The notes below the pieces were generated by a model. That model saw only the letters and a list, made by a program, of their open reading frames with translations. It did no database searches and was not told the origin of the DNA. A program made the translations under genes and the position numbers. DNA of 48,128 nt from a virus (lineage: Duplodnaviria; Heunggongvirae; Uroviricota; Caudoviricetes), in IMG/VR virus record IMGVR_UViG_2529292716_000011. One strand, 5' to 3'. Position 1 is the first letter of the stretch. Every line of letters begins with the position of its first letter. This document shows positions 25,849 to 33,090 of this stretch, piece by piece.

Positions 25849-29529
<3,681 letters not shown>

Positions 29530-29555
<26 letters not shown>

Positions 29556-30075
29556 TCAGCAACCCCGGTATCAGTTCATCCAGCGCGGCTGCTTTGTTCA
29601 TGGCTTTGATGATATCCCGTTTCAGGAAATCAACATGTCGGTTTTCCAGTTCCGGAAAACGCCGCTGCACCGACAGGGGGATCCCGTCGAGAATACTGGC
29701 AATTTCACCTGCGATCCGCGACAGCACGAAAGTACAGAATGCGGTTTCCACCACTTCAGCGGAGTCTCTGGCATTTTTCAGCTCCTGTGCGTCGGCCTGC
29801 GCACGCGTAAGTCGATGGCGTTCGTACTCAATAGTCCCTGGCTGGAGATCTGTCTCGCTGGCCTGCCGCAGTTCTTCAACTTCCCGGCGCAGCTTTTCGT
29901 TCTCAATTTCAGCATCCCTTTCGGCATACCATCTTATAACGGCGGCAGAGTCATAAAGCACCTCATTACCCTTGCCACCGCCTCGCAGAACGGGCATTCC
30001 CTGTTCCTGCCAGTTCTGAATGGTACGGATACTCGCACCGAAAATGTCAGCCAGCTGCTTTTTGTTGACTTCCAT
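29530..30075 (-). CDS. Nu1: terminase small subunit Nu1
   Basis: 181 aa; lambda gpNu1-like with winged-HTH N-terminus. Confidence 0.93.
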
Positions 30076-30280
30076 TGTTCATTCCACGGACAAAAACAGA
30101 GAAAGGAAACGACAGAGGCCAAAAAAGCCCGTTTTCAGCACCTGTCGTTTCCTTTCTTTTCAGGGGGTGTTTTAAATAAAAACATTAGGTTACGGCGAAG
30201 AAGAACGGAAACGCCTTAAACCGGAAAATTGTCATAAATAGCGAAAACCCGCGCGCCTTCCGCCCCGTAACCTGTCGGAT
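30076..30280. other. cos region (cosB and cosN; cohesive-end 12-mer at 30254-30265)
   Basis: Flanks match the lambda ends (cgcgggttttcgctatttatga... and ...gatccgacaggttacg); the 12-mer reads gggcggaaggcg on the phage top strand instead of gggcggcgacct. Confidence 0.75.
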
Positions 30281-30301
30281 CGCCGGAAAGGACCCGCAAA
30301 A

Positions 30302-30316
30302 TGATAATAATTATCA
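30302..30316. promoter_or_regulatory. perfect 7-1-7 inverted repeat TGATAAT-A-ATTATCA (Fur-box-like)
   Basis: Exact palindrome about 150 bp upstream of the ylcI-like start, in AT-rich DNA between cos and the first plus-strand gene. Confidence 0.35.
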
Positions 30317-30464
30317 TCTACATGTCACAACGTGCATCTACGCCATCAAACCACGTCAAATAATCAATTATGACGCAGGTATCGTATTAATTGATCTGCA
30401 TCAACTTAACGTAAAAACAACTTCAGACAATACAAATCAGCGACACTGAATACAGGGCAACCTC

Positions 30465-30698
30465 ATGTCAACGAAGAACAGAACCCGCAGAACAACAACC
30501 CGCAACATCCGCTTTCCTAACCAAATGATTGAACAAATTAACATCGCTCTTGTTCAAAAAGGGTCCGGGAATTTCTCAGCCTGGGTCATTGAAGCCTGCC
30601 GCCGGAGACTGTGCTCAGAAAAAAGAGTTTCGCCTGAAGCAAACAAAGAAAAGAGTGACATTACTGAATTGCTCAGAAAACAGGTTAGACCAGATTGA
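30465..30698 (+). CDS. small basic protein, YlcI-like (DUF3950-type)
   Basis: 77 aa; Arg/Thr-rich N-terminus; resembles the DLP12 YlcI family from memory. Confidence 0.55.
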   Translation: MSTKNRTRRTTTRNIRFPNQMIEQINIALVQKGSGNFSAWVIEACRRRLCSEKRVSPEANKEKSDITELLRKQVRPD

Positions 30699-30755
30699 AG
30701 CAATTTAGATAATCGTGCAGACTACGCCCCCTCATATCACATGGAAGGTACTACA

Positions 30756-31166
30756 ATGGCTCAGGTTGCCATTTTTAAACAAATATTCGATAAAGTGCGA
30801 AATAATTTAAACTATCACTGGTTTTATTCTGAACTAAAACGTCACAATGTCTCACATTACATTTACTATTTAGCCACAGAGAATATTCATCTTGTTCTTG
30901 AAAACGATAATACGGTTTTAATAAAAGGACAGGGTAAGGTTGTAAATGTAAGATTTTCAAAAAATAAATGCCTTATAGAAGCCACCTTAAAAGGATTCAA
31001 ATCAGGAGAGTTATCATTTTACGAATACAGGAAAAATCTTGCTACAGCAGGGGTTTTCAGATGGATTACAAATATCCACGAAAACAAAAGGTATTACTAT
31101 ACCTTTGATAATTCATTACTCTTTACTGAGAACATACAGAACACTACACAAATATTTCCGCACTAA
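30756..31166 (+). CDS. ybcV: DUF1398 family protein, YbcV-like
   Basis: Start at [12 protein letters not shown] (136 aa; ORF track start 30741); translation resembles DLP12 YbcV. Confidence 0.7.
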
Positions 31167-31345
31167 ATCATAACGTCCGGTTTCTTCCGTGCCAGAACCG
31201 GACTCGCTGGCATGATGAAATATGTGTACCCGGTAACCCCGGTGTGCATCGTTTTTGATTATTCCCGCACACTCGCGCAGAAGGAGTTCCCCGTCGGGCT
31301 ACGGTCTCTGTTAATACGGGAATACGGCGACGATTGGATTTGCCC

Positions 31346-32251
31346 CTATATTTCCAGACATCTGTTATCACTTAACCCATTACAAGCCCGCTGCCGCAGA
31401 TATTCCCGTGGCGAGCGATAACCCAGCGCACTATGCGGATGCCATTCGTTATAATGCTCGAACGCCTCTGCAAGGTTCTTTGCTGCCGTTAACCCGTCTG
31501 GTTTGGGCATGATACTGATGTAGTCACGCTTTATCGTTTTCACGAAGCTCTCTGCTATTCCGTTACTCTCCGGACTCCGCACCGCCGTGTTCTTCGGTTC
31601 AAGTCCCAACATCCGGGCGAACTGGCGTGTTTCATTAGCCCGGTAGCATGAACCATTATCCGTCAGCCACTCCACTGGAGACGACGGAAGATCGTTGCCG
31701 AAGCGGCGTTCCACCGCTCCCAGCATGACGTCCTGTACTGTTTCACTGTTGAAGCCGCCGGTAGTCACCGCCCAGTGCAGTGCCTCACGATCACAGCAGT
31801 CCAGCGCGAACGTGACACGCAGTCTCTCTCCGTTATCACAGCAGAACTCGAACCCGTCAGAGCACCATCGCTGATTGCTTTCTTTCACGGCCACTCTGCC
31901 TGTATGTGCCCGTTTCGATGGCGGTACAGCAGGTTTTCGCTCAAGCAACAGCGCATTCTGGCGCATGATCCGGTAAACACGTTTGGCATTGATCGCAGGC
32001 ATACCATCAAGTTCTGCCTGTCTGCGAAGCAGCGCCCATACCCGACGATAACCATACGTGGGCAGCTCTCCGATAACATGGTGTATACGGAGAAGCACAT
32101 CCGTATCATCAGTGTGACGACTGCGGCGGCCATCCATCCAGTCATCGGTTCGTCTGAGAATGACGTGCAACTGCGCACGCGACACCCGGAGACAACGGCT
32201 GACTAAGCTTACTCCCCATCCCCGGGCAATAAGGGCGCGTGCGCTATCCAC
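31346..32251 (-). CDS. insD: IS2 transposase InsD
   Basis: 301 aa; DDE transposase. Confidence 0.92.
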
Positions 32252-32574
32252 TTTTTTGCCCGTCCATATTCAACGGCTTCTTTGAGGAGTTCATTTTCCA
32301 TCGTTTTCTTGCCGAGCAGGCGCTGGAGTTCTTTAATCTGCTTCATGGCGGCAGCAAGTTCAGAGGCAGGAACAACCTGTTCTCCGGCGGCCACAGCAGT
32401 AAGACTTCCTTCCTGGTATTGCTTACGCCAGAGAAATAACTGGCTGGCTGCTACACCATGTTGCCGGGCAACGAGGGAGACCGTCATCCCCGGTTCAAAG
32501 CTCTGCTGAACAATTGCGATCTTTTCCTGTGTGGTACGCCGTCTGCGTTTCTCCGGCCCTAAGACATCAATCAT
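32209..32574 (-). CDS. insC: IS2 InsC
   Basis: Start at [13 protein letters not shown] (121 aa). Confidence 0.9.
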
Positions 32575-33090
32575 CTGTACTCCAATGACTAGTCTAAAAA
32601 CTAGTATTAAGACTATCACTTATTTAAGTGATACTGGTTGTCTGGAGATTCAGGGGGCCAGTCTAACGATACAGCGCATGATGTGTCAGGCTTGAATACC
32701 TTTATCCTTTAAAAGGGATATCAGTTAAGTTATCCCGTGTAGGGTATAAGCCATTATCAAAGCCACTCTGTAGGGAATGGCTTTTGTGATGGCATCACTT
32801 ACTCTTTACGCTGCTATCCCACTCATCCCGGAATTTTGATGGGTTATTGAAACCTTCTGCTGACATAACAACTCCTTCAATGTTTGGCTGAAATTGGGAT
32901 GTCTTTCCATCAGTCCGCCACCACAAAGAATCTTTTTTGCCATAAGGCAGGAGGTTCATCTTTCAGTGGCTGCCGGTGTTATTTCCCCACTTACTGGCTT
33001 GGGTTGTTTCGTGGTACTGCCGTTAACTGGTGGCCCAGAATAAATTCCGGTTTCATTATCAAGCCCACCCGTAAATGGGCTTTGTAATGG

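Follow-up and report, generated by a model that had tools for sequence, protein, structure and literature searches.

A known Fur operator bordering cosQ in lambdoid phages is kept with the cos site and not with the cargo

Introduction

What does a perfect operator for the host iron sensor Fur do at the packaging site of a lambdoid prophage? The question is raised by IMG/VR virus record IMGVR_UViG_2529292716_000011 (Caudoviricetes), a stretch of 48,128 nucleotides that was analyzed as a whole and is called the window throughout, in which the palindrome TGATAAT-A-ATTATCA lies next to cosQ, the packaging-termination subsite of cos. It had been proposed in a preliminary description of this DNA that the palindrome has the form of the Fur operator, that it stands about 150 bp upstream of two plus-strand genes, and that it places these genes, as prophage cargo, under iron-responsive control. 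The palindrome is found exactly where it was described, at 30302-30316. We concluded that the Fur box itself is already known, having been in the Fur literature since 1994-2007 as nohA/nohB, and that the dyad tracks cos whatever gene lies beyond it; its regulatory output may be small and dependent on context.

The palindrome as a Fur operator

The dyad, the short tail beside it and the gene from which its distance is counted are as follows.

30302-30316, no strand: Fur 7-1-7 dyad TGATAAT-A-ATTATCA (TGATAATAATTATCA), the primary high-affinity Fur site and the same 15-mer as the 'nohB' site of DLP12
30317-30322, no strand: conserved tail TCTACA (family consensus nTT(G/A)CA), from the alignment of 18 dyad-bearing variants
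29530-30075, minus strand: Nu1, small terminase (TerS), Pfam Phage_Nu1, E 2.4e-101

The left arm (30302-30308) and the right arm (30310-30316) flank a central A at 30309, and all 14 out of 14 positions specified by the 7-1-7 motif (TGATAAT-N-ATTATCA) are present. Against the 19-bp classical Fur consensus, GATAATGATAATCATTATC, the dyad scores 16/19 and is the only strong match within the window. When up to two mismatches to the 15-mer were allowed, the dyad was the sole match in the 48-kb window, and dinucleotide-preserving shuffles gave a mean of 0.14 matches. Related phage loci supplied 2587 background segments of 52 nt; none matched the dyad at two mismatches or fewer, and 0.35% did so at up to three. 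By its sequence, and by the published binding of the same sequence, the window dyad is a genuine Fur operator, as had been claimed for it; near-identical copies are bound by Fur in vitro and in vivo.

A Fur site already in the literature

The cryptic prophages of K-12 both carry the dyad at the equivalent place, DLP12 with exactly the 15-mer of the window and Qin with the allele of phage lambda (central G). In the catalogue of Chen 2007 (PMC2189734) the site called 'nohB', at 579824, scores 25.3 bits, the third-highest value in the table of strong Fur clusters, and goes back to the Fur titration assay of Stojiljkovic et al. 1994, as cited there. The site called 'nohA', at 1634624, scores 22.3 bits at a distance of 233 nt upstream of nohA, and another Fur site (12.6 bits) overlaps it 6 bp farther out (PMC2189734). 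The nohA site was also recovered by the in-vivo Fur selection of Vassinova and Kozyrev 2000 (per PMC2189734), an oligonucleotide carrying it (the Qin/lambda allele) was gel-shifted by 150 nM Fur, and it was picked as a predicted Fur-controlled sigma-70 promoter (Chen 2007, PMC2189734). In the window, 234 nt separate the Nu1 ATG (30075) from the dyad centre (30309), the position reported for nohA (233 nt); in sequence and place the window dyad is the same element as nohA/nohB. The weaker of the two overlapping nohA sites is the one farther from nohA (Chen 2007), and the tail at 30317-30322 most likely belongs to a comparable 7-1-7 Fur site, weaker than the dyad and overlapping it with a 6-bp offset.

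The coordinates of the DLP12 dyad in the current K-12 record are 580595-580607, at 777 bp from the one given in Chen 2007. The K-12 elements are arranged like that of the window, ~233 nt upstream of a Nu1 homologue and with ylcI/ynfO on the other side; the window prophage differs in retaining full-length Nu1 and A genes and in having a variant cohesive end. The 777-bp offset presumably fits the shift between two K-12 genome versions at that locus. The literature assigns the nohA/nohB site to the noh gene, and a search of open-access papers found no mention of its adjacency to cosQ or of the copies in lambda, phi80, N15 and 21.

Occupancy of such dyads by Fur in vivo is backed by two independent datasets from strain CFT073. 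In chromatin immunoprecipitation followed by sequencing (ChIP-seq), one Fur summit lies at 3046729 (height 20.55, 'nohB' c3174) and another at 1424721 (height 283, 'nohA' c1568); the same experiment gave heights of 315 for acnA, 120 for bfd, 676 for exbB and 3285 for fepA (Banerjee et al. 2020, PMC7157518, Table S5A). The c3174 locus (L252) has the layout of the window, with the Nu1 homologue, cos, TGATAATAATTATCA and ylcI, and the summit falls within its 15-mer (3046725-3046739), which is identical to the window dyad. The c1568 locus (L128) is a phage-21-type prophage without a DUF3950 gene, in which a degenerate dyad, GTGATAATTATTCTCG, lies at 1424694-1424709, 4 bp from cosQ. This dyad is overlapped by a peak at 1424699-1424711 that was found by the exonuclease version of the method (ChIP-exo), in iron-replete cells only (Gao et al. 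2023, PMC10164565, Dataset 2). Within the ChIP-seq data the perfect dyad has the weak peak and the degenerate one the strong peak; loss of multi-mapping reads, occlusion by H-NS, or extra Fur sites near the 21-type dyad are possible reasons for this disparity.

A ChIP-seq peak of FNR has been reported on the Qin dyad as well, at 1634625 (U00096.2), among Fur-bound operons and together with nine others of the same kind (Myers et al. 2013). The dyad was rejected as an FNR site from its sequence, since the spacing of its half-sites does not fit TTGAT-N4-ATCAA, and cross-reaction or indirect recruitment could possibly account for the peak. The main text of Beauchene 2015 does not mention the site.

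Position of the dyad within the cos region

The 389 bp between Nu1 and the first gene on the other side, a DUF3950 gene, are a phage cos region in the reverse complement of the lambda map, as determined by alignment with lambda, 434, 21, Qin and DLP12. The terminase genes and cos subsites not yet listed are these.

30289-30295, minus strand: cosQ, AGGACCC on this strand and GGGTCCT on the late strand, from the cosQ annotation in the phage 434 and 21 records and alignment
30254-30265, no strand: 12-nt cohesive-end sequence within cosN, the late strand reading GGGCGGAAGGCG, from alignment
30076-30253, minus strand: cosB region (I2, R3, I1, R2, R1, assigned by position), from alignment with Qin and DLP12, spacing as in lambda
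27630-29555, minus strand: gpA-like large terminase, 641 aa, an open reading frame (ORF) placed after Nu1, with no match in NCBIfam

Read outward, the block consists of cosN, a 17-bp spacer, cosQ, a short A-run and the Fur box, with 6 bp between cosQ and the dyad. The lambda counterpart is TGATAATGATTATCA at 48452-48466, with cosQ at 48473-48479, and its central base is the sole difference from the window. The preliminary description had supposed that a near-identical sequence exists at the right end of lambda and that the element may be conserved rather than strain-specific; both suppositions were right, lambda itself carrying the dyad. The 641-aa ORF is probably gpA, as judged from its sequence and its position after Nu1. 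The names of the cosB subsites come from packaging papers and were placed by position; the papers of the Feiss laboratory name only cosQ, cosN, I2 and cosB (R3, I1, R2, R1).

The cohesive end of the window, GGGCGGAAGGCG, differs from that of lambda, GGGCGGCGACCT, at positions 7, 8, 9, 10 and 12, which all fall in the half where changes are reportedly tolerated. This allele is in the minority: with a 79-nt query most matches in E. coli genomes are 90-95% identical, and a handful are near-identical, with 98.7% as the top value among the listed matches. An Rfam scan of 30000-31300 found no known RNA, just sub-threshold matches to miRNA families on the cosB hairpin region. On the other side of the dyad, the leader 30340-30464 is near-invariant among the window, lambda, Qin and DLP12, with one difference (30455), by contrast with several substitutions in the 40 bp around the dyad; the leader has no Rfam match and no obvious sigma-70 promoter.

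Conservation with cos and not with cargo

Is the dyad kept with the genes beyond it or with cos? We scanned IMG/VR with the pattern CGGAAAGGACCCGNAAA, which is cosQ plus a few neighbouring bases, and obtained 116 loci with a cosN-like context, of which 97 have GATAA-N3-TTATC (up to two mismatches) just outside cosQ. When loci were clustered on the sequence 70-270 nt beyond cosQ they fell into 16 unrelated flank classes, and the dyad is kept in 13 of the 16 as against 0.35% of the background, these classes having inherited the cos block by common descent and not being independent. The first substantial ORF past the dyad reads away from cos in the DUF3950 class and the 21-type class only. In at least seven other classes it lies on the late strand and reads toward cos, as do for example the Rz/Rz1 spanins and N15 gp59-like genes that end in or beside the dyad. 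In phi80 the 15-mer is perfect, and a gp59-like late gene stops ~20 bp past it; the N15 dyad, CGATAATAGTTATCG, overlaps the end of gene 59; and a spanin is the sole gene near the HK225 dyad, CGATAATAATTATCA. The spacing between dyad and cosQ is 5-10 bp in lambda, 434, phi80, N15, HK225, 21 (where the dyad is degenerate) and the IMG/VR loci. The dyad thus has a fixed place within the conserved cos block, irrespective of its outer neighbour.

In a non-redundant alignment of 23 variants, conservation extends over cosN, cosQ, an A-run that varies in length, (T/C)GATAAT-NN-TATCA and nTT(G/A)CA and then stops, ~6 bp outside the dyad. Among the 18 dyad-bearing variants the percentages for the arms are G100 A100 T72 A100 A89 T94 and A72 T72 T100 A94 T100 C83 A94, and those for the tail are T83 T94 R C89 A78; the centre varies freely (50%). 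Pairwise identity averages 0.80-0.81 in the arms, 0.71 in the 17-bp cosN-cosQ spacer and 0.15 in the 20 nt beyond, a per-position comparison that is partly circular because dyad-bearing variants alone enter it. The cosN-cosQ spacer is reportedly tolerant of substitutions, according to mutagenesis ascribed to Wieczorek and Feiss in 2001.

Conserved arms around a free centre look like the pattern of a selected dimer-binding site. This bears on the possibility that the dyad has no selected function but came down with the cos block as an AT-rich relic that Fur binds through a chance match to the consensus. In favour of a relic, the flank classes share their cos block by descent and are not independent samples, and the dyad is dispensable in a sizeable minority of phages and has weak or contradictory effects on expression (see below). 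However, its arms are better conserved than the cosN-cosQ spacer while the centre is free, the motif persists through changes of the A-run, centre and flank in 13 classes, and homology stops just beyond the dyad, not before it. We consider a relic unlikely.

A scan of species-representative genomes with the cosQ anchor did not widen the taxonomic range: the bulk of its matches arose by chance in unrelated phyla or came from contaminating lambda control DNA, and just one divergent cos was real (L234). Eight short contigs, L139, L146, L150, L154, L155, L162, L184 and L198, match the right end of lambda exactly. Their assemblies are labelled Colwellia, Chromatiales, Kitasatospora, Oceanobacillus, Veillonella, Pseudomonas, Pseudomonadales and Streptomyces, and the lambda sequence on them most likely reflects contamination with control DNA.

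Phages without the dyad and a possible role at cos

Three out of the 16 flank classes are without the dyad. In class 2 (15 loci, for example L010) the late strand reads GCCGGAGAAATCCGGC and then T8 directly before cosQ, in the position of the dyad. This is a predicted intrinsic-terminator-like hairpin that would close the last late-strand gene, and it may shield both cos and the terminase genes against non-antiterminated transcription. A complete Nu1-type TerS is encoded in each of the other two classes (7 and 8), for which reason the idea that the dyad-less classes are satellites of the phage-inducible chromosomal island (PICI) type was rejected. Gifsy-1 (L250, NC_010392, ~808-850) has cosQ and no Fur dyad; at the place of the dyad there is an inverted repeat, TTGTTA-N5-TAACAA, upstream of an outward-reading gene.

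A second sample, independent of the cos-flank anchor, was anchored on TerS: a five-sequence Nu1 alignment led to 80 loci (L253-L332), all 99-100% identical to the Nu1 of the window, so that no TerS diversity was gained. Among the 74 loci with a canonical cosQ, the dyad stands at 5-7 bp in 61 (82%) and is missing in 13 (~17%), which indicates that the same terminase works without it. The dyad is not present wherever its cognate terminase occurs, and for this reason it was not filed as a cos subsite. Two TerS-anchored loci have no canonical cosQ; one of them combines the cohesive-end variant of the window with AGGGCCC (late strand GGGCCCT) and an intact dyad, which could represent natural variation of cosQ or a prophage that is defective.

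Could the dyad nevertheless act at cos by a route other than transcription? By analogy with IHF at cosB, Fur could be an accessory of packaging or a brake before cosQ, or the site could be a decoy that titrates Fur at high copy number. The linkage to cosQ in most lambda-family phages whatever the neighbours would fit such a role, as would the fact that no consistent transcriptional output was found. The cos inserts in standard use run from lambda 48442 or 48446 onward and so always include the dyad at 48452-48466, so that packaging work with them has always been done with the dyad in place; the site was first recovered through multicopy clones titrating Fur; and mutants with slower translocation are reported to suppress cosQ defects. 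On the other hand, its absence from ~17% of phages with 99-100% identical Nu1 and from Gifsy-1 shows that the dyad is not required for packaging, its spacing to cosQ varies by several bp, and the cos maps of the packaging literature name nothing left of cosQ. A role of this kind is in our view very unlikely. In a stricter version, which is highly improbable, the dyad is an unrecognised accessory subsite of cos: the translocating terminase would run into Fur 5-10 bp ahead of cosQ and be helped to stop and cut, and more generally packaging or terminase expression would be coupled to iron.

Promoter-like sites and expression data

The elements and genes on which a transcriptional role of the dyad would depend are the following.

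30301-30328, minus strand: promoter-like GTGACA-16-TATCAT (10/12) toward cosQ, cosN and Nu1, with its -10 inside the dyad, from sequence match
30280-30308, plus strand: weak promoter-like TCGCCG-17-GATAAT (8/12) directed outward, with the left arm of the dyad as its -10 and cosQ in the spacer, from sequence match
30465-30698, plus strand: DUF3950 / YlcI-YnfO family gene, 77 aa, the first outward gene
30741-31166, plus strand: DUF1398 (YbcV/YdfO-like) gene, 141 aa, AT-rich (29-36% GC)
30679-30695, no strand: PdhR-like box AACAGGTTAGACCAGAT, 10/14 to consensus, at the end of the DUF3950 gene and upstream of the DUF1398 gene
30686-30713, plus strand: promoter-like TAGACC-16-GATAAT (9/12), a candidate separate promoter of the DUF1398 gene

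The reading that we favour, tentatively and at a little less than an even chance, is that a genuine Fur operator occludes weak promoter-like elements at the cos junction, with an output that is small and dependent on context. For identical or near-identical copies, iron-loaded Fur binds the 7-1-7 dyad in vitro and in vivo, and Fur dimers probably also occupy the weaker overlapping site 6 bp farther out. In the window, bound Fur would sterically cover the AT-rich -10-like hexamers within the dyad, namely TATCAT on the late strand, in the 10/12 site pointing through cos to Nu1-A, and GATAAT on the outward strand, in the 8/12 site pointing to the DUF3950 gene. An iron-replete lysogen would in this way keep the cos junction transcriptionally quiet; under iron limitation, or with inactive Fur, weak initiation toward Nu1-A or toward the DUF3950 gene would follow, depending on the flanking module. 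Such occlusion fits the sequence, the classical action of Fur and the expression data from CFT073.

These data are log2 ratios of delta-fur to wild type in iron-replete cells, the sign being verified by fepA at +6.6 (Gao et al. 2023). In CFT073 the values are +2.95 for C_RS26755, +2.33 for C_RS07340 and +2.13 for C_RS07370, and all three genes were placed in the direct Fur regulon and assigned to the 21-type dyad (PMC10164565). This derepression, 4- to 8-fold, is the only such case near a dyad among the delta-fur datasets. C_RS07370 is the fifth gene of the CFT073 terminase operon. C_RS26755 and C_RS07340 are gone from RefSeq; by exact-sequence look-up, the outward ORFs beside the 21-type dyad carry consecutive tags in other genomes, and the derepressed unit is probably on the outward strand. 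One outward ORF, of 83 aa and with a signal-peptide-like N-terminus (MKIRNILAISLATSSFSCLAF...), lies ~105 nt past the 21-type dyad. Just before cos, both phage 21 (L002) and the CFT073 21-type prophage (L128, 1423654-1424369) have a gene for a protein with a TonB-family C-terminal domain.

Several points weigh against occlusion. Neither promoter-like site is conserved beyond what the cos block imposes: GTGACA-16-TATCAT was found in the flank class of the window only, the outward TCGCCG-17-GATAAT recurs across many classes for no other reason than its place in the conserved cos block, a search for a promoter shared by the flank classes found none, and the outward strand has no conserved sigma-70-like promoter at the dyad. 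Any function must be dispensable, since ~17% of phages with the same Nu1 are without the dyad. The K-12 expression data are unsupportive, in that nohA and nohD are not derepressed in delta-fur strains and the outward genes are unchanged or lower. In MG1655 delta-fur, nohD, nohQ (the nohA of Qin, b1548), ybcV and ydfO are unchanged, with counts of 0-5 and, for ybcV and ydfO, of about 0-2, whereas in W3110 delta-fur the log2 values are -5.1 for ynfO (p 0.0096), -2.05 for ydfO (p 2e-5) and -3.7 for ybcV (p 8e-5), together with -3.9 for ylcI (not significant), -2.8 for the DLP12 gene nohD and -4.1 for appY, and other DLP12 genes are down too (PMC10164565). The fall of appY and of other DLP12 genes suggests a regional or indirect effect in W3110. 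The text tables of Banerjee 2020 (PMC7157518), which lists both CFT073 peaks, give no expression change for the flanking genes. Finally, the Fur ChIP-exo lists of MG1655 and W3110 have no peak at the DLP12 or the Qin copy; these two copies are near-identical repeats, and loss of multi-mapping reads is a possible cause.

The proposal of the preliminary description can be set against the same data. Worked out as a model, it would place a Fur-repressed promoter for the outward cargo (the DUF3950 and DUF1398 genes) at the dyad, to be switched on in iron starvation as in the case of stx1 in Stx1 phages. The geometry on which it was built is correct, with 148 bp from the end of the dyad to the DUF3950 ATG (30465) and the DUF1398 gene next. 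GATAAT in the left arm could act as an outward -10, no better sigma-70 promoter was found within the 148 bp, and two genes beside the CFT073 21-type dyad, probably the outward ORFs, are up in delta-fur (log2 2.3 and 2.9). Yet the outward site has a poor -35 (3/6), the K-12 homologues are unchanged (MG1655) or lower (W3110) in delta-fur, ybcV goes strongly down in copper stress while Fur targets rise, and the dyad is kept without an outward gene in N15, phi80, the Rz/Rz1-flanked class and others. A candidate PdhR-activated promoter, moreover, belongs to the DUF1398 gene itself. Partial support for the proposal comes from the derepression of 21-type flanking genes in CFT073; for the class of the window, derepression of cargo in the manner of stx1 was not seen in the public data from homologous prophages, which contradict it, and we regard control of the cargo as unlikely.

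The PdhR route was traced through the K-12 homologues. PdhR is bound between ynfO and ydfO, and ybcV mRNA is down 10-fold in a pdhR mutant (PMC7660256). The PdhR-like box AACAGGTTAGACCAGAT in the window and the published box AAcaGGTcagACCAgaT in Qin are homologous; the one in the window overlaps with the -35 of the promoter-like site at 30686-30713. The box and the published dependence on PdhR together suggest that the DUF1398 gene has its own promoter, and we infer that it is driven mainly from there. Its fall in delta-fur cells and in copper stress may be indirect, via PdhR. Some 180 bp downstream of the DUF1398 gene an IS2 copy occupies 31346-32619 (TnpB 301 aa, 727 bits; TnpA 276 bits) and takes the place of whatever separated this gene from the lysis region.

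The lower expression in W3110 could also be read in the opposite sense, with iron-loaded Fur as an activator that counters H-NS silencing of the AT-rich outward genes, so that cargo would be on in iron-replete cells and off once Fur is inactive. Both ynfO/ydfO and ylcI/ybcV are lower in W3110 delta-fur, ybcV belongs to the group of genes with the strongest downregulation in copper stress, a condition in which Fur-repressed genes rise, and ydfO and sodB were induced together in a study of ionic liquids. The outward genes lie in AT-rich DNA (29-38% GC against ~54% in the terminase genes), and RyhB as a cause of the lower expression gained no support from a crude pairing test, its duplex energies being no better than those of shuffled controls. 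Against activation, the counts are very low, the ylcI value is not significant and nothing changes in MG1655; in W3110 delta-fur the drop extends to all of the DLP12 neighbourhood, appY included, and reads from the DLP12 and Qin paralogues are not independent. PdhR activates ybcV, and delta-fur and copper both disturb Fe-S and pyruvate metabolism, which opens an indirect route; activation would also leave the conservation of the dyad in phages without outward genes unexplained. We hold this reading to be quite unlikely.

Discussion

Three known systems invite comparison. The stx1 promoter of Stx1-converting lambdoid phages was reported to be Fur-repressed by Calderwood and Mekalanos in 1987. 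The dyad of the window resembles its Fur box in concept only, in that a host Fur box within a lambdoid prophage was proposed to give cargo an iron response; the stx1 box overlaps a defined cargo promoter with demonstrated derepression in low iron, whereas the box of the window lies at the cos junction. Fur reportedly activates ftnA by displacing H-NS, a finding credited to Nandal et al. in 2010. There the likeness is a Fur site well upstream of an AT-rich target that is lower in delta-fur (W3110), and the difference is that the effect on the homologues of the window genes is absent in MG1655 and explicable via PdhR. The IHF site I1 of lambda cosB is likewise a conserved site for a host protein within the ~200-bp cos region; I1 has been shown to play an architectural part when packaging starts, whereas the Fur box can be missing from phages whose terminase is the same.

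A Fur box linked with a lambdoid cos site was not found in the open-access literature, and neither was the systematic linkage of dyad and cosQ across lambda, 434, 21, phi80, N15 and related prophages, which is a modest curiosity. As a Fur box the element is ordinary, being one more copy of a sequence present in about four-fifths of complete E. coli genomes. Its assignment to the Nu1 homologue (in the catalogue) and to cargo (in the preliminary description) both rest on proximity, and the expression data back neither cleanly. If the dyad were an accessory cos subsite after all, its catalogue entry as the 'nohA' operator would miss its actual role.

The packaging literature is silent on a strong site for the host iron sensor that is kept against cosQ in lambda, phi80, N15 and 21. 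Every standard cos fragment carries this Fur-titrating site, and presumably most cosmids do too.

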